NCBI GenBank assembly: GCA_016220095.1
Contig: JACRIJ010000111.1
Location: forward strand, 27,748-91,747
Reading direction: 5' to 3'
DNA: 64,000 bases
Source: Planctomycetota bacterium
GTDB taxonomy: Bacteria > Planctomycetota > MHYJ01 > JACQXL01 > JACRIJ01
Within the stretch, counting starts at the first letter, position 1. Every line of letters begins with the position of its first letter. The translations under genes and the position numbers were made by a program. The notes under the pieces were generated by a model. It saw only the letters and a program-made list of their open reading frames with translations. It was not told the origin of the DNA and made no database searches. Positions 15,245 to 27,762 of this stretch are shown piece by piece.

Positions 15245-15637
15245 TTATGGCCAATCGTAACCTTCCACGATATTAAGGAATATGTATATCAAGAGCGCGA
15301 TGACTACCAGCGTATATCCCGTAGGATCCGTAGTGCCGCCTATCTGGAGCTGGTTGATGTTCTGTGAAATTACGGCTATATCCTCATCAGAAAGCTGTGA
15401 CATTACCTGTTCAATCTGCGCATCGGTGTAACCGAGTCCGGATAATTTCCCCTTTAACGCGTTTAAATTCGCGGCCATATCCGCATTTGCAACCGTATCT
15501 GATGCCGCGGGTTGCGGAATCTGCACGGGATTCTGTTGCGGCTGGTCCGCAAAAATTTGCATGGGATTAATCAGGCACGTACAGAAAACCGCGGTGATAA
15601 CAATGGTATTTTTGATGAAAAACCAGACCATTTTCAT
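15245..15637 (-). CDS. small secreted protein with N-terminal signal peptide and C-terminal TM anchor (130 aa)
   Basis: Signal peptide, Q/P-rich linker, C-terminal hydrophobic segment LVVIALLIYIFLNIV; flanked by repeats A3 and B1. Confidence 0.45.
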   Translation of the reverse strand: MKMVWFFIKNTIVITAVFCTCLINPMQIFADQPQQNPVQIPQPAASDTVANADMAANLNALKGKLSGLGYTDAQIEQVMSQLSDEDIAVISQNINQLQIGGTTDPTGYTLVVIALLIYIFLNIVEGYDWP

Positions 15638-15708
15638 ATCTCCTATTTAATTTCTTATTTATTGAATTATATGAAGAACGTGAGTTTTGTCAAGGAAAAA
15701 CATTTAAC

Positions 15709-15836: not shown

Positions 15837-15864
15837 TTGACAATTCCCTGAAATATGATATAAT
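15837..15864 (+). promoter_or_regulatory. sigma70 promoter TTGACA-N16-TATAAT, 9 nt upstream of the arsR ATG (near-leaderless)
   Basis: Hexamers seen in sequence. Confidence 0.5.
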
Positions 15865-15873
15865 TCTACTGTT

Positions 15874-16209
15874 ATGGAACTATCAAACTACGTTAAGATA
15901 TTTAAAGCTTTATCAAACGAACAGCGGCTAAAGATTTTTCTCATGATTCATAAAGGCTGTTGTGAATCAAAGGATAAAGGAAGTTCGGAATTCCTGATAG
16001 AAGACAAAGGCTGTTGCCCTGTAGCAGGAGTTCTTGAGAAGGCCTTTACCAAGGTATGCGGATGCATGAAACTTTCAAAGTCAACGATCTCGCATCATTT
16101 TAAGGAACTCCAAAACGCGGGACTTATCACCTGCGAGCGGGACGGACAAATGTACCGTTGCAAGGTCAATGAAGAAGCGGCCGGTTTTATAAAAGATTTT
16201 CTGAAATAA
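15874..16209 (+). CDS. ArsR/SmtB family metalloregulator with Cys-rich insert
   Basis: 111 aa; wHTH (LSKSTISHHFKELQNAGLI). The alpha3 site is CGC where the family usually has CVC. Extra insert GCCESKDKGSSEFLIEDKGCCP carries two CC pairs. Confidence 0.8.
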   Translation: MELSNYVKIFKALSNEQRLKIFLMIHKGCCESKDKGSSEFLIEDKGCCPVAGVLEKAFTKVCGCMKLSKSTISHHFKELQNAGLITCERDGQMYRCKVNEEAAGFIKDFLK

Positions 16210-16269
16210 TTTTTTTGTCTTAATTGTTCGATAGTATCAAAACAATAGAATGAAAGGAGGTGATAACGT

Positions 16270-16440
16270 ATGTTCAATTGTTGCGACAAGGACGGCAAGT
16301 CCATTTGCGAACAGCTTGATTGCAAGGTAAAAGAAACCCCGAAAGGCATTCAGGTTGAGATAACCGCAAAAGACCCTTCCAAGACGGAGTCGCTGAAGGC
16401 ATTGGCAAAGGCCCTTCATGACTTCTGCGGATGCGCGTAG
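16270..16440 (+). CDS. small Cys-rich protein (56 aa), not in ORF track; putative metal-binding partner of the ArsR regulator
   Basis: Strong RBS AAAGGAGG 7 nt before the ATG. MFNCCDKDGKSICEQLDCKVKETPKGIQVEITAKDPSKTESLKALAKALHDFCGCA has 6 Cys as CC/CxC motifs mirroring the regulator insert. Followed by a hairpin terminator. Confidence 0.55.
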   Translation: MFNCCDKDGKSICEQLDCKVKETPKGIQVEITAKDPSKTESLKALAKALHDFCGCA

Positions 16441-16451
16441 GTACTACGATG

Positions 16452-16483
16452 TCGGGAAGTGGGCCCGCTTCCCGATATTTTAA
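16452..16483 (+). terminator. rho-independent terminator after the small Cys-rich ORF
   Basis: tcgggaag-tgggcccg-cttcccga stem-loop followed by tattttaat. Confidence 0.5.
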
Positions 16484-16685
16484 TCCTACATCATTTAACA
16501 GCCGCGTAATTAACAGGGACTGACGACGACTCTTGCCGACAGGGACTCTGAGAGACCTTGATGAGACACGAACGAAATGGAAAATCGAGAATGGAGCACC
16601 AAAAATCCCGCAATGCGGGATTTTTGGTGAGTGTGAGTATTGAGTACTTAGTAGTTAGGCGCCAATTTTGCGCAAGCGCAAAATT

Positions 16686-17040
16686 GGTGGAGGCGGGGGG
16701 AATTGAACCCCCGTCCCGAGACACTTCAGCAGGAGCTTCTACGCTTGTAGCCGGTAATTTGCTCTCGCGCCCGGGCCCCCTTCCGGCAAGGTGCCAGTCC
16801 GCCAGCTTAACTTTGAGTTTCGCCCCTCAGGCGTTTAGCAAACCCTCAGGGCTATCCCGCAGTGATACGTCGCCATGCTCCCGCGGGAGGGGAACACGAC
16901 AACGTTACAGCTTAATTACGCTGCAAATGCATACGCATTGTCTGCGTTTATATTTTTGCCAGGTGTTTTACGGGGCCTCCTGACAACCCCGAAGCGCCGC
17001 TTTCTGCCTCAATCTGTCCGGTCGAATCCAGTTCGCCCCC
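16686..17040 (-). ncRNA. ssrA: tmRNA (ssrA), one-piece form
   Basis: Minus-strand 5' end GGGGGCGAACTGGATTCGAC and 3' end GGACGGGGGTTCAATTCCCCCCGCCTCCACCA. Acceptor stem has a G3:U70 wobble (AlaRS identity element). Tag ORF GCA GAC AAT GCG TAT GCA TTT GCA GCG TAA reads ADNAYAFAA*. Adjacent to smpB. Confidence 0.9.
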
Positions 17041-17187: not shown

Positions 17188-17232
17188 ATCCGTCGTCCCT
17201 CTGTACTCGCTACCGGCTACTCGCTACTTCGT
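17188..17232 (+). repeat. repeat family B copy B2 abutting the smpB stop
   Basis: atccgtcgtccctctgtactcgctaccggctactcgctacttcg. Confidence 0.65.
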
Positions 17233-17693
17233 TAAATGTTCTTCCCTCTCATCGCCATTCTGATATGTTTATCAGATTCTTTCTTTTTCATATCCGCGCG
17301 CTTGTCGTAGAGTTTTTTGCCTCTCGCGACGGCAAATTCAATTTTCGCAAGGCCTTTTTTGAAATACAGCGCTAAAGGCACGAGTGTCTTGCCTTCCTCG
17401 GCGGTTTTGCCAAGCAGGCGGTGTATCTCGCTCTTGTGCAGGAGCACCTTGCGCGGCCTCTTGGGTTCGTGATTGGCAAAATTGCTCGCCTGCGCATACA
17501 AAGCAATCTCCATATTGTAAATAAACACCTCTCCATTGCTTACCCTGAGATAACCTTCGGTTATGCTGGCATTGCCGTCGCGGATGGATTTCACTTCGGT
17601 TCCGCGCAAGGACAGGCCGCCTTCGTATTTTTCAAGGATTTCGTAATTGGCAAAGGCCTTTTTGTTTTTAACAACGATTTTTATGGCATCCAT
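17232..17693 (-). CDS. smpB: SsrA-binding protein SmpB
   Basis: 153 aa; conserved SmpB sequence (KKAFANYEI...GTEVKSIR...). Immediately upstream of tmRNA on the same strand. Confidence 0.9.
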   Translation of the reverse strand: MDAIKIVVKNKKAFANYEILEKYEGGLSLRGTEVKSIRDGNASITEGYLRVSNGEVFIYNMEIALYAQASNFANHEPKRPRKVLLHKSEIHRLLGKTAEEGKTLVPLALYFKKGLAKIEFAVARGKKLYDKRADMKKKESDKHIRMAMRGKNI

Positions 17694-17928: not shown

Positions 17929-18446
17929 TCAACGCCGGACGTCGAGTTTTTGGCCGGGGCCGCTGTCAGAAGCCGAGCGTATTATATATTGCTCCTGCGA
18001 ATTGGGGTCAAAACCTTCCTTAAAATCTGAAAACATGATAGTGTAATTGCCGTTTGCATCCGTTTTAATCGGGCCTGCCACGGGGTCCGAAAAATCGGTA
18101 TCATCAACGGTATAAACATACAAATCCGATTCAGGCACGTTGACAATCTTAAAATTATCAATTTTCTCAAACGATTTATCGTCAGGCGCGGACTGTGGTT
18201 TTGTCAGGCCGGAACTCGTATAAAATACATTGCCGCTGACGAAAGCCATATCATCGCTGTCACTGGTTTCTGCTGGTTTCGGGGCCGGGGATGATTCCGG
18301 GGCCGAAGACGAAGCCTGAGAAGAGTTGCTTTCTCTTATTGCTGTTGAAGAAGCGCCGCCTCCTCCGCCGCAGGCGGGAAGAACAGCCAATCCTGTAAGC
18401 ACTGCGGCAACTAAAACAAGGCGTGCTATTAAATTATTTTGAAACA
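17929..18446 (-). CDS. truncated paralog (5' remnant, about 172 aa) of the giant lipoprotein family: signal/lipobox plus carboxypeptidase-regulatory-like domain only
   Basis: MFQNNLIARL...LPACGGGGG lipobox; AFVSGNVFYTSSGLTKPQ...DLYVYTVDDTDFSDPVAGPIKTDANGNYTI is collinear with residues about 1-160 of the two giant genes (about 75% nt identity). GGAGG RBS 9 nt before the ATG at 18446. The ORF stops exactly at the junction with repeats A4/C1. Confidence 0.6.
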
Positions 18447-18497
18447 TGCTGAAAAAACCTCCATGATAAATGTAATTTAACAACCGCAAAGCGCGAT

Positions 18498-21400
18498 TTA
18501 TTTGGCTATAAATACGCCAAACACATCGCCGCCTATGAATTCACCGCCTGTTGACATGTCTATTGTCATTCCAGTATTAAGTATCACAAAGAACTTGCCA
18601 CCGGCATAGCCGCCCATGGTGCCAAGTTGCATGCCGGCATCCGTATTAACAGAAACTTCCGTGCCAACAAGCGTCCCGGACATGCTTACATATTGACCGT
18701 ATACATTCCAATCCGCAGTGGTGCTGAAACCGTCTACGGTCAAATCCGTCCAGACAACAAAGAAATCAGTTCCATCAGAGGCGGCTGTAGGCAGGAATTG
18801 CTCGCCAGGATCAGCGTTAATCACTATGCCGGATCCGACCAAAGAACCGTTTTTATCAACTATCTGGCCATAGACGTCCCATTCGCCTGAATTCAAGCCG
18901 CCAACCTCGTCTGTCCAGATAACAAGATATTTTGCATTGGTTGAATCATAACAAACGGAAACCTCGTTATCGCTGAGATACGTATTTGCATTAATGGATA
19001 TTTCCGCGCCAAGCGTGCCTGTCGGCGAAACAAAACGGCCTTTTATTTCATAGTCATTGGTATCGTCGCACCATACTACAAAGAAATCAGTCCCGTCAAA
19101 GGCAACGCACTTGAAACCGAAATCAGCGTAACCTGTGCTGATGGCAAATTCACTGCCTACAATGCCCGCAGTGCTGACAAGTTTTCCGTAAGCCTTGCTT
19201 TCACCGGTAGAAGAATTAACCTCTTTGAAATACACGACAAGGTAATTGCCGCCGCCGTAAGCGACATCACCCAATTCATCCGTGTTGGAGCTTATCGCCG
19301 CAATATCTATAGTCGCACCACTGAGTCCGGTGCCGTCTTTTTTAATGAACTGCCCTTTAATCGTATCAACCGGATATGTGGCATCATCCGCCCACACCAT
19401 AAGGTAATAGGCGCCGTCATACGCTACGGTAGGAACGCCGCCTGCGCCGGCTGTGAATATTCTTGTGCCGGTTAAAGCGCCGGTTGCCGATACCAATTGC
19501 GCGTTTGCGGCATTGTTGTTTGCGTCATTGCCTTCTATGGCAACAAGATAATTAGTGCCGTCAAACGCGGCACTGACAGCCATTTCCTGTGCTGACATGG
19601 TTGCGATAGCCGTTCCAGCTGGCGCCGGGCCTGGCCCCGGCCCCGGGCCTGTAACGGGGCCTGTTGAGAACGGGTCCGGCGGCATAAATGCCCATCCGCT
19701 CGTCATGCCTGTCGTAGTCAATACCCATGCAAATTCAAAATCCATGCCCACGCCGTCTTCGGTATGGAATACCCTCAACAGGTACGCCCTTTCGGTATCT
19801 GCCGGATCGGTCAGGGCATCACCGGTTCGTATAAGGTATATGGACGGCTTATCGTAGCCGCCGGTTGCCGTGAATATATCTCCTGTTATGACAGTTGTTA
19901 TTGTCATTAAAGTCCCCTTGCTCGCGTAGAAATCAATCGTAAATCCGGCGTCATAGGACGCGTAGATGTTATCGTTCTTGAAAGTTTTTTTGGCGTCCAC
20001 GGGCAGTGCCGCGTCAAGGGCTAATATATCAAGCTTGTATATTTTAAGGTTCGTGTTGCTGCCGTTCGGAACGAACACCAGTTTATTAAGCGAATTGGAC
20101 GTAACCAGCGCATCCCAACCGGAGAATTCAGCCGTCCCGGCAAATTCCGTATTTTCAATATCGTATCCGAAATTGAAATAAGTGTTGTTATCCAGCCACA
20201 CGTACGGGAAGAACATCGGTTTCCATTCGCCTACAAAGAACGGCCATTGAGGATTGGCAGGGTCAAATACCGCGCCCGGATCATATCCCCAGTGCAATAC
20301 AAAATCAATCTTGCCGTTTCCGTTGGTATCTTCCCTCTGGCCGTCGCCATTGGTATCCGTATCCTCACCGTCATGGTTCATCCACGAAGTAAACGGGTCC
20401 GCCCAGAAATACCATACGAAAGTATCGGCCGTTCCGTTACTGTCATAATCATAAGCAAACTTTACAAAATAACCCTTCCACAGCCCGTCAGGGTTGTTCA
20501 CGCTGTCAAATGTCAATGTCAACATGCCGTTGGCATCGGTTGTAACACTGCTGATAAAATTGGCGGAATCTGATGTAGAATTATGCGTTGATGCCCATGC
20601 GTCCTGACCGTTATCATAATACAGTTCCATTGATTCAGAAGCCAACGGACCTGAATCGGCTTTGAAATGCTGGGTAAGGGTCAATTGCCAGTTTGAAGGC
20701 AGTTGTTCAAATTGCTGGTTGTTTTCCGGATTCCACCAGGAATCAAACTGCAGGCTTGACAGGATAGTTTCAAGGTTTTCATTGAATGTCAGGTTTTCAT
20801 AATCGCCTGCATAGGCGCTGAACCCGTCCATAAGGCCGCTGAATATGGACTTTAACACCTGTTCGCTTGCTATGGGAGAAATTTCTTTCAGGTTTTCCCA
20901 ATATTCGCGGATTTCCTGTTTATTGTCCGGATTTTGATACATCCATCCGCCGCCGAAACTATTGGCGGCTGAAGGATCTATGACCCTCTGGCCGACAATG
21001 CGCATCACAAAAATAACGAATGCCGACCTGAAATCCAGAACCGTACTGTCGGCAAATGTCTGCCCGTAGAGTTGAGGCGACACGCCCGCGTAAATAACGC
21101 TCTTGTACCTTTCTTCCATGGAGGTCCACATCGGAGTGGAATAAATGAGTTCGCCGGCCTTGTTAAAAAAACCATCGCCGTCAATAACCGTGCCGTCCTG
21201 GCTCATATACGGACTGAAAACCGCTTCATAATATGCGTTTGTATCGGCATAGAGCCCGTCCAGTACGGCCTTATTCGCGAGAAATTCCAATGCGAAATCG
21301 GCAATATTGATGTAATTTGATATTTGTTCAAGAGACATTTCAACGAATTCGCCGCTTGTTGACGGAAGGGTTATATCAAACATCTCTGCTATTTCAGCGT

Positions 21401-22778
21401 CTGTGATAGCCGCGGAATCGAAAATATCCGTATTCGTACCCGAATCCCAGCTCCAATTCCACCGCCATTCAAATTCGGCTTTTGTAAGGACTTTCAAATC
21501 TGACAGGGTGCAGGAAAGCGTATTGTAATTATCAGCGATATATTCCACCAGCGCATACGAAAAAGTATCCATATGTTCCATAATGTCTCTGAGCCGGAAC
21601 TTCCTGTCCTTATTGAATGTATAGGTCGTAAAATCCCTGCCGAACATATCTTTATCCTGGAGTTTTACGCCGGATTCATCAACGAAACCGTCGCTATTGG
21701 CGTCCGCAAAAACATCCTTAATGTTGATGAGATATACGTTCGGATTAAAGGAAAGCTGTTTTGCCGTATCCGTAGTTATCGGCTCGGGATTGCTGATCCC
21801 GGGAAAATTTTCCGCCGTGAGTTCCATCAATGTTCCGTCCGCTTTCCTGAAAAAATCAGGCTCAATGTACGTATAACATTCTTCATTGCTGTTTTCTCTG
21901 GCAACAGTAAAACCAAGCATTGTAATGATATTAATAAGAGCAACGAGTTTCTTTTCAGCCGCAACGCCCTCTTTGAATATTTCGTCTGCCGCGGCGCCGT
22001 CAAGCATGGTGGATGCGGTAGAAATTTCCACCGATCCCGCGGCTCCGGATTTGGTCGTATCAAAAGACGATGTGTAATCGTCATAGAAATAGGATTCATC
22101 CACGGTCAGGTCGCCGGTTGCAAGCTGTGCGGTAACTTCTTTGACTATTGAGGAAACGATTTCCACAAGACTCGCCCACAGCGCCGGATTGATATCAACC
22201 AGGCCGAATTCGTTGAAGATCTCCTGTATCTTGGTAAGAATGGTCTGTACGACGATTTCAGTGACCGGGTCAACGCCTACGACAGGCGCGCCATTCGCGT
22301 CTTTATCAAGGGCGGCATCGTTCATATCAAGCAGGCGTCTGAGGCCAAGCTTCTGCCCGTTGCCCCTCGTAAAGGCCGCGCGGATTACGTATTGCTGTTG
22401 CGAATTTGGGTCAAAACCGGCCTTGAAATCGGAAAGTTTAATGGTATAACTGCCGTTTGCATCCGTCTTAATCGGACCTGCTACGGGGTCTGAAAAATCG
22501 GAATCGTCAATAGTATACACATAGACATCCGCGTCAGGTACGTTGACGAGGTCGGAATTATTGATTTTCAGGAGCGTCTTGCCGTCAGGTGTGGTTTGCG
22601 GTTTGGTCAGGCCGGAACTCGGATAAGAAACGTTGCCGCTGACGAATGCCGTGTCACTGCCGCCGGGGGGGTTAGTCGTACTGCCGCCGCCTCCTCCGCC
22701 ACAGGCAGGCAACAGAGACAATCCTGCAATTATAATTGCAAACAAGACACCCCGCGTTATTGAATTAATTTGAAACAT
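18498..22778 (-). CDS. giant surface lipoprotein paralog 1 (about 1426 aa): lipobox, Gly-rich linker, CarboxypepD_reg-like domain, large novel central region with DxDxNGDG calcium-binding-like motif, PG linker, 7 tandem approx 50-aa beta-propeller-like repeats
   Basis: Start refined to ATG 22778 (MFQINS; GGAGG RBS; the track start 22793 is an in-frame upstream ATG within the RBS). LLPACGGGGGG; DTDTNGDGQREDTNGNGKIDF; GPVTGPGPGPGPAPAG. C-terminal repeats follow the pattern [AF]DGxx[YF][LF]VVWxD...VYGQxV...G...G. Confidence 0.75.
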   Translation of the reverse strand: MFQINSITRGVLFAIIIAGLSLLPACGGGGGGSTTNPPGGSDTAFVSGNVSYPSSGLTKPQTTPDGKTLLKINNSDLVNVPDADVYVYTIDDSDFSDPVAGPIKTDANGSYTIKLSDFKAGFDPNSQQQYVIRAAFTRGNGQKLGLRRLLDMNDAALDKDANGAPVVGVDPVTEIVVQTILTKIQEIFNEFGLVDINPALWASLVEIVSSIVKEVTAQLATGDLTVDESYFYDDYTSSFDTTKSGAAGSVEISTASTMLDGAAADEIFKEGVAAEKKLVALINIITMLGFTVARENSNEECYTYIEPDFFRKADGTLMELTAENFPGISNPEPITTDTAKQLSFNPNVYLINIKDVFADANSDGFVDESGVKLQDKDMFGRDFTTYTFNKDRKFRLRDIMEHMDTFSYALVEYIADNYNTLSCTLSDLKVLTKAEFEWRWNWSWDSGTNTDIFDSAAITDAEIAEMFDITLPSTSGEFVEMSLEQISNYINIADFALEFLANKAVLDGLYADTNAYYEAVFSPYMSQDGTVIDGDGFFNKAGELIYSTPMWTSMEERYKSVIYAGVSPQLYGQTFADSTVLDFRSAFVIFVMRIVGQRVIDPSAANSFGGGWMYQNPDNKQEIREYWENLKEISPIASEQVLKSIFSGLMDGFSAYAGDYENLTFNENLETILSSLQFDSWWNPENNQQFEQLPSNWQLTLTQHFKADSGPLASESMELYYDNGQDAWASTHNSTSDSANFISSVTTDANGMLTLTFDSVNNPDGLWKGYFVKFAYDYDSNGTADTFVWYFWADPFTSWMNHDGEDTDTNGDGQREDTNGNGKIDFVLHWGYDPGAVFDPANPQWPFFVGEWKPMFFPYVWLDNNTYFNFGYDIENTEFAGTAEFSGWDALVTSNSLNKLVFVPNGSNTNLKIYKLDILALDAALPVDAKKTFKNDNIYASYDAGFTIDFYASKGTLMTITTVITGDIFTATGGYDKPSIYLIRTGDALTDPADTERAYLLRVFHTEDGVGMDFEFAWVLTTTGMTSGWAFMPPDPFSTGPVTGPGPGPGPAPAGTAIATMSAQEMAVSAAFDGTNYLVAIEGNDANNNAANAQLVSATGALTGTRIFTAGAGGVPTVAYDGAYYLMVWADDATYPVDTIKGQFIKKDGTGLSGATIDIAAISSNTDELGDVAYGGGNYLVVYFKEVNSSTGESKAYGKLVSTAGIVGSEFAISTGYADFGFKCVAFDGTDFFVVWCDDTNDYEIKGRFVSPTGTLGAEISINANTYLSDNEVSVCYDSTNAKYLVIWTDEVGGLNSGEWDVYGQIVDKNGSLVGSGIVINADPGEQFLPTAASDGTDFFVVWTDLTVDGFSTTADWNVYGQYVSMSGTLVGTEVSVNTDAGMQLGTMGGYAGGKFFVILNTGMTIDMSTGGEFIGGDVFGVFIAK

Positions 22779-22890
22779 ACCAGAAACCTCCATAAGTATA
22801 TTTTTTCTGAATTTGCATTATACCCAAAAAAACAGAATATGTCAAATTTTTCGCACGAATTAAGAGGTGTATTTGTTATTCCTTTCCTCA

Positions 22891-23068: not shown

Positions 23069-26000
23069 CTATGGCGCCGTAAAGTAAATCAGCCTGGACA
23101 GCTGTGTGCCGTAAATCGTCCTGTAGTATATGCCCACCCTGTATTTTTGTCCGGACACCAGGGTGGCTCCGGTCGGATTGACGGACATCGCCGTATACGG
23201 GTCAAGGTCATAAGCGCCCCATAGCGTATTGCCCTGGAAAACCCAGGACGAATCCAGCTGGTCAAACATAACGTACACTGTTTCAAACATCAAATTCGGA
23301 TTGTTGACGTTTTGAGGCGTGCCCGGCAGGATAATGCTGGGGTTCCAGGAAATCTGCGTCAGGTTATTTGACATGTCAACCTGCAGATTGGTTCCGGTAT
23401 TTGTCGGGCTTGTTCCGTCATGTATGGGGAACGCGGGCACTTCGTTTATCTTTACGGTTTTCTCCACTATTGTGTTATCCGTCAGTGTGAATTTCACCTT
23501 AAAATTGGCTCCTAACACAGGAGGCGTGGTGCCTTTATCAACAAAAATTCCCCACGGCTGGCCCGCCGTGCCGGCGTTCAGGGTTGCTACCAGATTGTTC
23601 GCAAGATTAAACACTTCAACCTTGCTGACCGTAGACGGGTCATAGGCCTCGCCGGAGAAGAACAATCCGTATGTCTGGCTGATGGTGCTTCCGCCGTTAT
23701 TGTTTGACGCGAACATTACGGTTTCAACCTTACCGGAATAAAACATTGTAGAAGGCGCCGTCTGGGTCGCGAGTTTGCCGTCGTTATTCACGTCATAAGC
23801 GGCCAATTCCAAGGTCGTTGCCAAAAATCCCTTCCATTCAATGCTTCTGACTTCGCCGATGCCGGGGGCATACCACGTTTCCATCGTATCTGTCTGTAAA
23901 TTTGCGTCCGTTATTGACAACGTAATATGCAGACAACCGGCAAAATGCCCTGCCGGAACGTCAACGTCTTCAGTGCCGTAAACCGTTACCTCAAAGGATA
24001 ATGTCTCCGCGTCATTTTGCAGAAGCGTTGTGCCTGAATTGTCGTAAATATCCATATTCGTAGTTCCTGAGACCGTATCAAACACATTAGACGACGCAGG
24101 CAATAGCGTAATCGGCGTATCAAATATCTGAAGTCCGCCGCCATCGGCAAATCCGTATAGCATGAGGGCGCCCGTGGCGGAATCATAACCGTAATAGTCA
24201 CTGAACTCATAATTGGCGGAATCGGCATTGCCTGTATATTTTTCGGTCGTGTAACCGATGCCGTTAGGCAGGGTTACGGCGGAATTCAATACCTTTTCCG
24301 TTCTGAATTCTTCGGATACTACCTTGTTCTTCAAATCGCCGAAGAAATAGAATTCGCCGTATTCGCGGTCAATATATGTCCGCGTGCCGGAGAACGTACT
24401 GCCGGACGGGTAATACGTTGAAGCAAGGTATCCGCCCGAAGGAGGAGGAACATAGCCGCCCGGGCCGCCGGTGCCGCCGCCCGCGGGTTCAAACGGATTC
24501 GGCGGTATATTGGTCCAGTTATTTGTCTCCGTGCCGTTTACTGCCGTAAATATAGTCGCGAATTCAAAATCAAATCCCATATCATCCGCCTTGAATACGC
24601 GGAGCAGGTACGCCCTTTCGGTATTGAACATGGGCGAATCGCCAGTGCGTATCAGATATATGGACGGGGACATATATTCGCCGGTGTTGGAGAACGTATC
24701 GCCTTCTATGGCCAGATTGGAAGCGTCAGTTCCTTTGCTTGCGTAGAAATCAATGGTAAATCCGGCGTCAAACGCAGCGTATATGTTGTTTCCGGTAAAC
24801 GTCTGTTTCGGATTTGTACCAAGCGCGGCATCCAAATCGGCGGCATTAAGCTTATAAACCGTCACGCCGTTCGTATTATTGGGCACCATAACCAGTTTAT
24901 TCTGAGAATTTGCCATCACAAGAATATCATAGTTGTTATTATACTGGGTCACGTCCGTATTCATGAACGGGGTACCTTCAATATCGTAACCGAAATTGAC
25001 GTAGTTATTCACCGGCACCCAGGCATACGGGAACATCATAGGCTTCCATTCGCCCACATAGAACGGCCACTGCGGATTGGCCGGGTCAAACGGCTTATCC
25101 TTGTCAAATCCCCAATGGCTGATGTAATCAATATAACCGTTGCCGTCAACGTCATCCCTGACGCCGTCGCCGTTGTTGTCATAATCTTCGCCGTCGTGAT
25201 TCACCCAGTCATTGTACATGTCGGCCCAGAAGTACCATACGAACGTTTCATCCGTTCCGTTCGCGCCGACATCAAAGGTAAACTTCACAAAGTATCCCTT
25301 GAAGAAATCAAGAAGCGGGCCTTTCGCATTGTCAAATTCAAGCGTAAGCATGCCGTTTTCGTCTGTGGTAACCGATGAAATGAAATTCGCCACATCGCTG
25401 GTGGAATTATGCGTGCTCGCCCACGCGTCCTGCCCCATGTCATAATAGAGTTCCATGCTGTAAGACGCAAGCGGTCCGACGTCTGATTTAAAGTTCTGGG
25501 TTAAGGTGAGCTTTGTATTGTCAGGCAGTTGTTCAAAATTATTATGCTCCATGTCCTTATTCCACCAAGTATCAAACTGCATGCTTTCCAACAGCGTCTG
25601 CGTATTCGTATCAAACGCAAGGTTTTCATAATCGCCGGTATATGAGGCGCCGAATATGTCAGGGAATAGCTGAACCAGTATTTCCTTGATAACGGTCGTA
25701 TCGTCTGTCGGAGACGGCCACATGAAGTTCTGATTGTTGGGCTCAATGTTTTTATCGGGCATATCAGTTCTCTGATACAATAACCCGCCCGCAAAACCGT
25801 CTAACGGGTCAATCACGTGTATTCCGGTAAGACGCAGAACTATCAGCACAAACGCGGACCTGAAATCAAGCGCCGTATCGTCGGTAAATGTCTGCCCGTA
25901 TAACTGCTGTGAAATGCCGGAGTAAACCGTGCCTTTTATTTTTTCCTCTTCAGAATTCCACATCGGCGTGGTCTTGACTATCTCTTTGGCCTTTTCAAAG

Positions 26001-27652
26001 AACCCGTCGCCGTCAACAATGGTTCCATTGGAATCAAAGAACTGTTTGAAATTGTCCTGGAAGAAGGCATCTTTATTCGCATACAGTCCGTCCAATACGG
26101 CTTTATTGGCCGCGTATTCTATGGCAAAACCGGTAAATTCAAAATAACGGGAATCCTGGCTTAGAATTTCTTCTACATAATCCACCGCAGTAGGCGGAAG
26201 GGTTATGGCGAAAAGTTCGTCCACGTCTCCGGCCGCGAACGGAATTGTCGGGCCGTCCACCCACATGTTCTGAGCCTCGTCAAAATATCCGTCCTGGCGC
26301 CACTGGAAACTGCCTGCAATGGTCTGCTTTACGGTGGCAATATCAGTGCTGAGAAAGATATAATTAGCGGCCGTAAACGCTATCATTTCGTACATCAGGG
26401 CGCCCATGTCTTTAAAGTTTTCGCGAAGCCGGAATTTCTTGTCGGCGTTAAACGTGTATGCGGTAACGTCCCTGCCGAAGAAATCCTTTCCCTGCACTTT
26501 AACTCCGGAGTCGTCAACAAATCCATCCTGGTTCGTATCCGTAAAAATATCATTCGGGGCCAGGACGTATATATTGGGATTGAACGGAAGCTGTTTGTCA
26601 ACGTCCGTTGTTATGGGTTCAGGTATGCTCATGCCCGGGAAATTCTCCGCGGTCACTTCCATCAGGGTGCCGTCCGGTTTCCTGAAAAAATCCGGTTCAA
26701 CGTACGCGTAGCATTTTTCGTTGCTGTTTTCCAGCGTCACCGTAAAACCGAGCATGCAGAGAACGTTAATGAGGGAAACGATTTTCTTTTCGTCAGGAAC
26801 GCCCTCTTTGAATATCTCGTCAGCCGCGGCGCCGTCAAGGAGCATGGACGCCGTGGATACCTCAACGGTATCAGACGCGCCGGACTTGGTCGTATCCATG
26901 GAACTGGTATAATCATCGTAGAAATAGCTTTCATCCACGGTCAGATCGCTGTTTTCAAGCTGTGCCGTCAATTCCTGCACAATAGAAGTAACGATATTCA
27001 CGAGACTCTGCCACAACGCGGGATCTATGCTTACAATGCCGAATTCGTTGAAGATTTCCTGGATTTTAGTAAGAATCGTCTGAACGACTATCTCGGTAAT
27101 CGGGTCAACACTTATTACCGGATTGCCGTCGGCGTCCTTCGTAATTGATGCGTCGTTCAGGTCCATGAAACACCTTAACCCTATCTTCTGGCCGCCTGCA
27201 TTGTTAAATGACGCGCGGAGAACGTATGATGTCTGCGAAGCAGAGTCAAAACCCGCGATAAAATCGGATTCGTCTACCGTGTAATTGCCGTTCGCGTCGG
27301 TTGTAATCGGACCTGCGACCGGATTAGAGAAATCCGTATCGTCAATGGTGTACAAATATACCTCGGCGCCGGCTACCGCAACAAGGTCTGAATTATTGAT
27401 CTTGAGCAGATTCTTGCCGCCTGCCGGATTCTGGGGCTTGGTTAAACCGGTGCTGGGATATGAGACGTTGCCTGAAACAAAGGCAACATCCGTACCGCCG
27501 CCGGTAGTGCCGCCACCCGTGGTGCCGCCGCCGGTCGTGCCGCCGTCAGTTGAACTGCCGCCACCACCGCCGCCACAGCCGAATAACAGCGCTATGCTCG
27601 TAAGCACCGTTATGAAGACAAGTAATCTTACATTGGATTTTTGGTAAAACAT
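23069..27652 (-). CDS. giant surface lipoprotein paralog 2 (about 1527 aa): same N-terminal approx 1000-aa module as paralog 1 but a different C-terminal approx 500-aa head
   Basis: Start refined to ATG 27652 (MFYQKSN; AAGGAG RBS; the track start is an upstream TTG). LLFGCGGGGGGSS followed by (GGTT)x3 from a 12-nt tandem repeat. Collinear with paralog 1 through ...ERAYLLRVF..., then unrelated sequence after the G/P linker (AGGGTGGPGGYVPPPSGGY). Confidence 0.75.
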   Translation of the reverse strand: MFYQKSNVRLLVFITVLTSIALLFGCGGGGGGSSTDGGTTGGGTTGGGTTGGGTDVAFVSGNVSYPSTGLTKPQNPAGGKNLLKINNSDLVAVAGAEVYLYTIDDTDFSNPVAGPITTDANGNYTVDESDFIAGFDSASQTSYVLRASFNNAGGQKIGLRCFMDLNDASITKDADGNPVISVDPITEIVVQTILTKIQEIFNEFGIVSIDPALWQSLVNIVTSIVQELTAQLENSDLTVDESYFYDDYTSSMDTTKSGASDTVEVSTASMLLDGAAADEIFKEGVPDEKKIVSLINVLCMLGFTVTLENSNEKCYAYVEPDFFRKPDGTLMEVTAENFPGMSIPEPITTDVDKQLPFNPNIYVLAPNDIFTDTNQDGFVDDSGVKVQGKDFFGRDVTAYTFNADKKFRLRENFKDMGALMYEMIAFTAANYIFLSTDIATVKQTIAGSFQWRQDGYFDEAQNMWVDGPTIPFAAGDVDELFAITLPPTAVDYVEEILSQDSRYFEFTGFAIEYAANKAVLDGLYANKDAFFQDNFKQFFDSNGTIVDGDGFFEKAKEIVKTTPMWNSEEEKIKGTVYSGISQQLYGQTFTDDTALDFRSAFVLIVLRLTGIHVIDPLDGFAGGLLYQRTDMPDKNIEPNNQNFMWPSPTDDTTVIKEILVQLFPDIFGASYTGDYENLAFDTNTQTLLESMQFDTWWNKDMEHNNFEQLPDNTKLTLTQNFKSDVGPLASYSMELYYDMGQDAWASTHNSTSDVANFISSVTTDENGMLTLEFDNAKGPLLDFFKGYFVKFTFDVGANGTDETFVWYFWADMYNDWVNHDGEDYDNNGDGVRDDVDGNGYIDYISHWGFDKDKPFDPANPQWPFYVGEWKPMMFPYAWVPVNNYVNFGYDIEGTPFMNTDVTQYNNNYDILVMANSQNKLVMVPNNTNGVTVYKLNAADLDAALGTNPKQTFTGNNIYAAFDAGFTIDFYASKGTDASNLAIEGDTFSNTGEYMSPSIYLIRTGDSPMFNTERAYLLRVFKADDMGFDFEFATIFTAVNGTETNNWTNIPPNPFEPAGGGTGGPGGYVPPPSGGYLASTYYPSGSTFSGTRTYIDREYGEFYFFGDLKNKVVSEEFRTEKVLNSAVTLPNGIGYTTEKYTGNADSANYEFSDYYGYDSATGALMLYGFADGGGLQIFDTPITLLPASSNVFDTVSGTTNMDIYDNSGTTLLQNDAETLSFEVTVYGTEDVDVPAGHFAGCLHITLSITDANLQTDTMETWYAPGIGEVRSIEWKGFLATTLELAAYDVNNDGKLATQTAPSTMFYSGKVETVMFASNNNGGSTISQTYGLFFSGEAYDPSTVSKVEVFNLANNLVATLNAGTAGQPWGIFVDKGTTPPVLGANFKVKFTLTDNTIVEKTVKINEVPAFPIHDGTSPTNTGTNLQVDMSNNLTQISWNPSIILPGTPQNVNNPNLMFETVYVMFDQLDSSWVFQGNTLWGAYDLDPYTAMSVNPTGATLVSGQKYRVGIYYRTIYGTQLSRLIYFTAP

Positions 27653-27762
27653 AAACAAACTCCTTATTTGAATTGACTGTTTTATTTTTTGTTATATGCC
27701 TAATTATACCCTGAAAAACGCTAAAAGTCAAATGAAACGGAAAAAAATTGGACTTCGGACGG

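Follow-up and report, generated by a model that had tools for sequence, protein, structure and literature searches.

We describe here a compact two-gene cassette in a 64,000-nucleotide (nt) stretch of contig JACRIJ010000111.1 from a Planctomycetota bacterium (assembly GCA_016220095.1); this whole stretch is referred to below as the window. The first gene, arsR, encodes a 111-residue winged-helix repressor of the ArsR/SmtB family with a Cys-bearing insert, and the second a Cys-rich protein of 56 residues. The module is real, conserved and uncharacterised, and it combines a new ArsR subfamily with a new family of small proteins, according to a logic that is known in outline. As relatives of it are found beside arsenic-detoxification genes, the cassette probably represents a new pair of sensor and binder for toxic elements of the arsenite kind. 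The reading we favour, to which we assign a probability of roughly 0.5, is that of an autoregulated cassette that responds to a metalloid and has the small protein, acting as a vicinal-dithiol buffer or chaperone, as its only local output.

The two genes and their distribution

All features of the cassette are on the forward strand. The arsR gene occupies 15874..16209 (ATG at 15874, TAA at 16207-16209) and the small gene, called type 1 below, 16270..16440 (ATG at 16270, TAG at 16438-16440), with a spacer of exactly 60 nt between them. The strong Shine-Dalgarno (SD) sequence of the small gene was read from the sequence at 16253..16263 (AAAGGAGGTGA); within it the ribosome binding site AAAGGAGG covers 16253-16260, with 9 nt between the end of the GGAGG core and the ATG. 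Of 85 related intergenic regions, 69 contain a GGAGG-like motif. The first-pass annotation of this DNA had placed an ArsR-type regulator and, after a 60-nt gap and a perfect ribosome binding site, an open reading frame (ORF) for a six-Cys, 56-residue peptide at the same coordinates, and these points were confirmed on the sequence. Its description of the small ORF as unannotated is true of the ORF track of at least 60 residues only. Both proteins have exact public matches from a Planctomycetes metagenome-assembled genome (MAG): the regulator is MBI5361138.1 and the small protein (MFNCCDKDGKSICEQLDCKVKETPKGIQVEITAKDPSKTESLKALAKALHDFCGCA) is MBI5361139.1, which carries the NCBI label 'hypothetical protein'.

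The small gene is real and under purifying selection at the protein level. A word-indexed search for homologues returned 59 clusters (formed at 90 % identity) that are 64-89 % identical to it, almost all of 55-58 residues. When 1.84 billion representatives were searched exhaustively with HMMER, 32 clusters at the 50 % level were obtained. Among 14 gap-free orthologues there were 0.26, 0.19 and 0.51 differences per site at codon positions 1, 2 and 3, respectively, and the ratio of nonsynonymous to synonymous differences (pN/pS) was 0.31. The first-pass annotation had named conservation at the nucleotide level only as a result that would speak against its proposal, and the data went the other way.

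The pairing of the two genes is likewise conserved. Four diverged small proteins were each found with an ArsR of 106-117 residues encoded ~60-80 nt upstream, the flanking genes being different every time. The regulator subfamily comprises 1188 clusters at 90 % identity, and a regulator-side scan with one genome per species gave 80 loci, all from MAGs; four metagenome loci bring these to ~84 non-redundant loci. The 80 loci belong to Omnitrophota, Planctomycetia, Nitrospirota/Thermodesulfovibrionia, Elusimicrobia, Firestonebacteria, Desantisbacteria, Nitrospinaceae, Rokubacteria, Bdellovibrionales, Bacteroidales, Spirochaetota, SAR324 and others. Co-occurrence with such insert-bearing regulators, another check proposed at the outset, was borne out: over the ~84 loci the first ORF after arsR encodes a type 1 protein in ~30, a second type in ~30 and a third variant in two. 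Type 2 proteins, with the motif MEKECCNVKVTETEDGLRIEIKGEG..NCC..CCGSGK, occupy the same slot after arsR in Nitrospirota and are homologous to type 1 over the hairpin core (hhalign 95 %, E = 2.4e-8). They form 119 clusters, all named 'hypothetical' and without a Pfam domain, and neither type 2 nor type 3 proteins had an NCBIfam match at E<=0.01. The arsR gene and the small gene are thus a conserved module that is present in several phyla with a like spacer of ~60 nt and unrelated flanks. In five Nitrospinaceae loci a 153-residue protein, Cys-free and with a signal-peptide-like N-terminus, is encoded between arsR and the type 1 gene. In one Nitrospiraceae locus (L032:502-660) the slot after arsR holds a different protein of 53 residues with two CxxC pairs, a weak match to the DnaJ zinc finger, and the arsenite methyltransferase gene arsM follows.

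In ~15-20 of the 80 loci the regulator stands without a small protein, directly before ArsM, GshA or HgcA, and therefore works without it. These loci bear on the alternative that the small protein is not an effector but a regulatory partner of ArsR: a co-sensor, an anti-repressor or a chaperone that loads metalloid onto, or unloads it from, the flexible Cys loop of the regulator and in this way tunes the response. The initial description of ArsD was likewise that of a second regulator. Such a role would suit the near-obligate pairing with the regulator whatever other effectors are present, the absence from the window of any other evident regulated gene, and the vicinal Cys pairs on flexible segments of both proteins; the fixed spacing together with the operator could also couple their stoichiometry. 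We nevertheless consider it quite unlikely, given the loci with the regulator alone and the absence of a sequence relationship between the two proteins. The first-pass annotation had seen motifs of the regulator insert mirrored in the small protein. This likeness did not survive comparison: hhalign gave 0.7 % and 3.3 %, the DK-G-S motif is confined to the window while across the small-protein family only the Cys positions are conserved, and what is left are the vicinal Cys pairs.

The small protein contains six Cys (C4, C5, C13, C18, C53 and C55; 5-9 in relatives), and Cys clusters are located at both ends, as an N-terminal CC and a C-terminal CGC. What is kept family-wide is the N-terminal CC, C53 with C55 (or a terminal CC in their place) and, in the core, the motif ETxxGxxhxh...KD. 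In an AlphaFold2 model built from 41 sequences, with a mean predicted local distance difference test score (pLDDT) of 80, a short helix at residues 9-14 leads into a beta-hairpin (16-23 and 26-33), which is followed by a long helix (36-53). The Cys-bearing termini are the least confident parts of the model, with pLDDT below 50 for residues 1-4 and a mean of 68 for the last block. No Pfam or NCBIfam family matched the protein at E<=1, PF02069 and the other metallothionein families included, in agreement with the initial judgement that it is not a recognisable metallothionein. As in metallothionein systems, the gene for a small Cys-rich protein is preceded directly by the gene of an ArsR sensor and a predicted operator. 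A sequence profile search of the PDB gave a best E of 1.1 (dynein light chain), and a Foldseek search of the PDB with the model a best E of 0.59. The protein also does not fit the ArsD profile (PF06953), which describes a thioredoxin-like protein of ~120 residues, whereas the model of the 56-residue protein is beta-beta-alpha.

Two relatives, P0070 (293 residues) and P0083 (232 residues), repeat the hairpin-helix core four times in tandem with Cys/His/Gly-rich linkers between the repeats; P0070 is probably secreted, judging from an apparent N-terminal signal peptide. The repetition of the same core between Cys/His-rich linkers is counted here among the points for the reading we favour. A relationship to TusA (PF01206) was considered and rejected for the small protein, which has no match and no CPxP motif. 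P0070 and P0083 reach 23.8 and 28.0 bits when summed, against a cut-off of 28.6, with no single stretch passing, which is a weak lead. In a further sequence, P0060 (105 residues), the N-terminal half of ArsR (through 'FTKVC') is fused in frame to residues 14-56 of the small protein, as a natural deletion or an assembly artefact. P0213 and P0215 (484 residues), which share a 90 % cluster with the 56-residue protein, are unrelated to it in sequence and were set aside as an apparent clustering artefact.

Promoter, operators and regulator cysteines

The cassette is preceded by a sigma-70-type promoter at 15837..15864 (TTGACA, 16 nt, TG-n-TATAAT) that matches the consensus at 12 of 12 positions, and only 9 nt separate the end of the -10 element from the arsR ATG. 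Related loci show the same geometry, the distance from the end of TTGACn to the start codon being 29-32 nt in 69 of 85; an SD-like 4-mer is found upstream in only one of the 85. With this distance and the near absence of an SD, the arsR mRNA is leaderless or nearly so. Five Nitrospinaceae loci (L076, L081, L086, L087 and L089) are arranged differently; their arsR is not leaderless but preceded by a leader of 20-30 nt that contains an SD, and the operator lies upstream of this leader. In the window, a second promoter with a perfect 12/12 sigma-70 consensus is present on the reverse strand at 15666-15693, facing a 130-residue ORF (15245-15637, reverse strand), so that the 230 bp upstream of arsR carry two divergent consensus promoters.

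Two predicted operators of the same architecture were recognised. The first, O1 (15864..15887; TTCTA-N6-TGGAAC-N2-TCAAA), overlaps the -10 element, the transcription start and arsR codons 1-5, and two of its half-sites fall within codons 1-6 (MELSNY). In the family the corresponding element, TTC(G/T)A-N6-T(C/G)GAAC-N2-T(A/C)nAA (TATTCTATnATTATGGAACTATCGAAC), is located at the arsR -10/start codon. Nowhere else in the 64 kb is the family pattern matched exactly (0.04 matches expected), and with a position weight matrix derived from O2 sites only, the score at the O1 position exceeded the 99th percentile of the control windows in 71 of 85 loci. O1 would appear to be an inverted-repeat operator at the regulator's own promoter. 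The second, O2 (16227..16250; TTCGA-N6-CAAAAC-N2-TAGAA), lies between arsR and the small gene, ~360 bp from O1; it has one mismatch to the family pattern and matches on both strands. Its family consensus, ATAGTTCGATnGTTnTCGAACAATAnAA, was anchored in 76 intergenic regions, where a strongly conserved order is seen: stop codon, T7-8, ~9 variable nt, ATAGTTCGATnGTTnTCGAACAATAnAA and GAAAGGAGGTGA. The O2 palindrome is 87.9 % paired, its covariation was no better than that of shuffles, and RNAalifold found no consensus structure of the arsR-small gene spacer. O1 and O2 are therefore read as protein-binding DNA sites, and this fits either one ArsR dimer or two.

A consensus scan revealed no promoter of the small gene itself, and co-transcription with arsR is accordingly presumed. 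The TAGAAT within O2 was considered as a promoter element and judged unlikely, as transcription would then start inside the SD. Directly 3' of the arsR stop codon is a T7 run (16210..16216), which was followed in alignments of 62-85 intergenic regions; a T7-8 run begins 0-3 nt past the stop in nearly every related locus, ~75 in all. A role of this run as an anti-SD element in translational coupling found no support: cognate and non-cognate flanks did not differ significantly in duplex formation (p ~0.10), the duplex in the window amounts to -3.5 kcal/mol, and pairing of a U-run with a purine-run is generic, the locus-specific complementarity not being significant. An Rfam scan for riboswitches and other RNAs gave nothing except the tmRNA described below.

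A GC-rich, terminator-like stem-loop with a weak T tract follows the small gene at 16448..16479 (core 16453-16474). The first-pass annotation had credited the small gene with its own terminator. The hairpin folds at -28.5 kcal/mol (z = -5.7), and compensatory changes support 15 of the 16 pairs in its consensus from 20 loci; the consensus terminator scan did not flag it. Its sequence, CCGGGAGGTGGGCCCGCCTCCCGG, is kept in ~17 type 1 loci of several phyla, often without a U-tract, a lack that would be unusual in a simple terminator; the loci in which it follows the small gene include L001, L006, L008, L010-L012, L027, L054, L055, L062, L064-L066, L073 and L075. Travelling with the cassette, the hairpin may serve to terminate transcription independently of a U-tract, or else as a stabiliser.

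The regulator scored 28.4 bits against PF01022 (HTH_5; Pfam cut-off 22) and is thus a member of the ArsR/SmtB family. Against NCBIfam NF033788 it reached 51.6 bits, with a cut-off of 55 and a match split in two stretches by the insert. Its matches in the PDB were HlyU, CzrA and ArsR, at E-values from 8e-9 to 1e-5. The modelled topology (helices 3-13, 16-27, 57-65 and 69-81, strands 85-90 and 93-98, helix 100-110) is the canonical a1-a2-a3-a4-b1-b2-a5 of ArsR proteins. The Cys-bearing insert, at about residues 28-56, lies between helices 2 and 3; in the model it is a flexible loop, residues 32-55 having pLDDT values below 50 and being predicted to be disordered.

The eight Cys of the regulator are C29-C30 and C47-C48 in the insert, C62-G-C64 at helix 3, and C87 and C96 in the wing, so that the two CC pairs and the CGC noted in the first-pass annotation are present. 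Among 83 homologues the conservation is 100 % for C62 and C96, 95 % for C87, 94 % for C48, 90 % for C64, 87 % for C47, 76 % for C29 and 59 % for C30. Six Cys are thus kept at 87 % or more, and on this alignment the conserved set is C47-C48, C62-x-C64 and the wing pair C87/C96, the first pair C29-C30 being dispensable. In a profile alignment to solved ArsR-family proteins 'KVCxCM' of the regulator aligns with 'ELCVCDL' of canonical ArsRs, and C62 and C64 therefore correspond to the classical helix-3 pair. The classical three-Cys CVCxxC site of the R773 type is not present, the third position being Leu or another non-Cys residue, and the regulator has no Cys beyond residue 96.

A mechanism can be proposed from these features. 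Free of a thiophilic metalloid, ArsR would occupy O1 and O2 and keep the expression of both genes low, O1 covering the -10 element and the start codon of the leaderless arsR mRNA and O2 lying just upstream of the ribosome binding site of the small gene. O2 would act by looping or cooperativity with O1, or as a roadblock. The ligand would most likely be As(III), with Sb(III), Hg(II) and Cd(II) as further candidates, and it could be bound by C62-x-C64 of helix 3, by C47-C48 of the insert and possibly by C87/C96 of the wing. Binding would release ArsR from the DNA, and the co-transcribed 56-residue protein would be made. The latter, with its modelled hairpin-helix core, could bind the metalloid by its terminal Cys clusters and serve as a cytoplasmic buffer or, as a metallochaperone, pass it on to other proteins.

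Genomic neighbours and the likely signal

ArsM is encoded on the same strand, downstream within ~1.1 kb, in 17 of the 80 loci, with scores of 342-349 bits on NF008823 (cut-off 263). GshA (glutamate-cysteine ligase) together with a GshB-like ATP-grasp ligase follows arsR in four loci, one of which (L082) was family-scored (TIGR01434, 436 bits). HgcA follows arsR in one locus (L077; 415 bits), with the same O2 operator. ACR3 is nearby in four loci; in three of them it precedes arsR by 1.6-4.2 kb, and in L054 it is found 2.3 kb downstream. Only the one in L014 was family-scored (TIGR00832, 405 bits). A resistance-nodulation-division (RND) transporter of the HAE3 type is nearby in eight loci. Other neighbours in some loci are AhpD-like CxxC proteins, TusA/DsrE-like proteins and Rrf2 regulators. 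Annotation of the recurrent neighbours, which covered a part of the clusters, revealed no CPx-ATPase, cation diffusion facilitator (CDF) protein, ZIP transporter or ArsA. An arsenic response has been reported for the hgcAB-linked ArsR of Pseudodesulfovibrio mercurii ND132 (bioRxiv 10.1101/2022.10.17.512643). Mainly because of the ArsM, GshA/GshB-like, HgcA, ACR3 and RND neighbours and this report, a thiophilic metalloid, most likely As(III), is proposed as the signal. The suggestion of a sensor/effector pair made in the first-pass annotation, which left metal and redox sensing side by side, thereby gains on the metal(loid) side.

Redox sensing deserves separate consideration. ArsR could sense oxidation, persulfidation or an electrophile, and the small protein could be a sacrificial thiol buffer or a redox relay. 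The closest solved relatives of the regulator include HlyU and YgaV-type ArsRs, a clade with thiol and persulfide sensors among its members; the hosts are anaerobic; and GshA with the GshB-like ligase, the AhpD-like CxxC, TusA/DsrE-like and Rrf2 neighbours all suit a thiol stress module. In BigR/SqrR-type sensors, on the other hand, a Cys at the C-terminal helix 5 pairs with a helix-2 Cys, and the present regulator lacks this helix-5 residue. The commonest enzyme partner is ArsM, and ACR3 and HgcA also occur, all of them specific for metals or metalloids. Vicinal CC pairs, which form strained disulfides, are in addition more typical of soft-metal sites. On balance we regard a thiol or redox module as unlikely.

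It is also conceivable that the cassette is a metallothionein-like pair for Zn(II), Cd(II) or Cu(I), a functional SmtB/SmtA analogue unrelated to arsenic. An ArsR-family sensor combined with a Cys-rich protein of ~56 residues fits the SmtB/SmtA logic, and the helix-3 CxC with an extra Cys resembles the alpha3N site of CadC. ArsR2 of P. mercurii has been discussed as a possible Zn, Cd or Pb sensor (bioRxiv 10.1101/2022.10.17.512643). The annotated neighbour families, however, are without CPx-ATPases, CDF proteins and ZIP transporters, ArsM, ACR3 and HgcA indicate metalloids or Hg, and the small protein has no SmtA-type His ligands and no Pfam metallothionein match. Such a pair therefore seems very improbable to us.

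Several observations weigh against the metalloid-responsive cassette that we favour. The arsenic association is strongest in the type 2 loci of Nitrospirota, and among type 1 loci an arsenic link was seen only in L014 and L054 (ACR3) and L042 (ArsM-like, 157 bits). The GshA, AhpD-like and TusA/DsrE-like neighbours suit a general thiol or sulfur stress equally well. C13 and C18 of the small protein are conserved among closer relatives only and lost in distant members, and its Cys content (6 of 56) is below that of classical metallothioneins. As the scan revealed no promoter of the small gene alone, O2 may act by looping, as a roadblock or as a cryptic promoter. Finally, all members come from MAGs of uncultured organisms and are known from genomes alone.

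A wider proposal, which we put forward tentatively and hold to be somewhat less than an even bet, is that types 1-3 form an unrecognised and phylogenetically widespread class of prokaryotic metalloid binders ('arsenic metallothionein or chaperone') of ~55 residues with a shared beta-hairpin core, a helix in type 1 and vicinal-Cys termini. On this view a new ArsR subfamily, sensing As(III) by a flexible Cys loop and built to a dual-operator, leaderless design with O1 half-sites in codons 1-6, would have these proteins as its primary output.

In the window itself the cassette is followed on the opposite strand by a tmRNA gene (16685-17040; Rfam RF00023, 169 bits; tag peptide ADNAYAFAA) and by a smpB-like ORF (17232-17693), the latter named from its sequence only. 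The arsR/small gene pair therefore belongs to no longer operon. As the 64-kb window contains no further operator match and no ArsM, ACR3, GshA or RND homologue, the small protein is taken to be the only local output. Farther downstream, also on the reverse strand, a 186-residue ORF (17929-18489) and a 1431-residue ORF (18498-22793) share a paralogous N-terminal module, consisting of a lipoprotein-like Cys, a Gly run and then 'AFVSGNV.Y.SSGLTKPQ..PD...'; just downstream of the longer one is a 1529-residue ORF (23069-27658, reverse strand).

If the proposed function is true, the small proteins make up a new family of metalloid binders, and the sensory site represents a new design among ArsR repressors. 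The regulator is common in uncultured anaerobes (Omnitrophota, Planctomycetota, Nitrospirota, Elusimicrobia, Nitrospinota and others), mostly of groundwater and sediment lineages, from environments that are believed to be sites of arsenic mobilisation and mercury methylation. Since the same regulator and operator precede ArsM, GshA/GshB-like and HgcA genes and are also found near ACR3, metagenomes could be searched directly for the predicted operator to trace a regulon that responds to arsenic, and the cassette could help to explain the control of arsenic methylation and of hgcAB expression. The compact promoter-operator-sensor unit and the 56-residue binder are candidate parts for biosensors and sequestration. 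The case also illustrates how proteins of less than 60 residues escape function prediction, all members being labelled 'hypothetical'. The module is widespread, cleanly delimited and experimentally tractable.

Relation to known systems

The closest parallel in organisation is offered by the cyanobacterial SmtB/SmtA, BxmR/BmtA and AzuR/NmtA pairs, in which an autoregulated ArsR/SmtB repressor controls a Cys-rich cytoplasmic protein of ~55 residues, as is proposed for the present cassette. As in SmtB/SmtA loci, an inverted-repeat operator, here a predicted one, adjoins the small gene. The small protein is, however, not homologous to SmtA (no match to PF02069 or any other Pfam family) and has a predicted folded hairpin-helix core. 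Whereas SmtA holds a Cys/His Zn4 cluster, the cassette protein has fewer Cys, and these include vicinal CC pairs. The SmtB and SmtA genes are divergent, while those of the cassette point in one direction and probably share a transcript that starts at the leaderless promoter. The genomic associations of the cassette indicate arsenic rather than zinc.

The ArsR/ArsD pair shares with the cassette the succession of ArsR and a small soluble vicinal-Cys protein, the metalloid response and binding being a prediction in the case of the cassette. The arrangement C4-C5...C13...C18 in the small protein recalls Cys12-Cys13-Cys18 of ArsD. ArsD, a protein of ~120 residues, is thioredoxin-like in fold and has the ArsA ATPase as its partner; the cassette protein has 56 residues, a beta-beta-alpha model and no match to PF06953. 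The antimonite operon AntR/AntC/AntA of Comamonas testosteroni JL40 likewise combines an ArsR-family sensor with a small metalloid-sequestering metallochaperone (PMC12641948). AntC, which is likened to the small protein here by description only, passes Sb(III) to the P-type ATPase of its operon, whereas the cassette is without an ATPase.

With regard to the regulator, ArsR2 of P. mercurii ND132 is an atypical multi-Cys ArsR with a CxC after helix 2 and wing Cys, encoded upstream of hgcA, and the L077 member of the present subfamily precedes hgcA in the same way. The comparison is by description only; ND132 ArsR2 is described with 4-5 Cys, and a Cys-rich insert and a small partner are not mentioned. 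Vicinal Cys pairs outside the classical helix-3 CVCxxC motif are a feature that the regulator shares with CgArsR and AfArsR, in which S3 sites for As(III) are built from such pairs. As(III) ligands from vicinal Cys at non-classical positions are known in these two proteins and in ArsD, and to our knowledge an arsenic site on a disordered a2-a3 insert has not been described so far. In this respect the present regulator differs from CgArsR and AfArsR, as its extra Cys pairs are located on a 25-30-residue, predicted disordered insert between helices 2 and 3.

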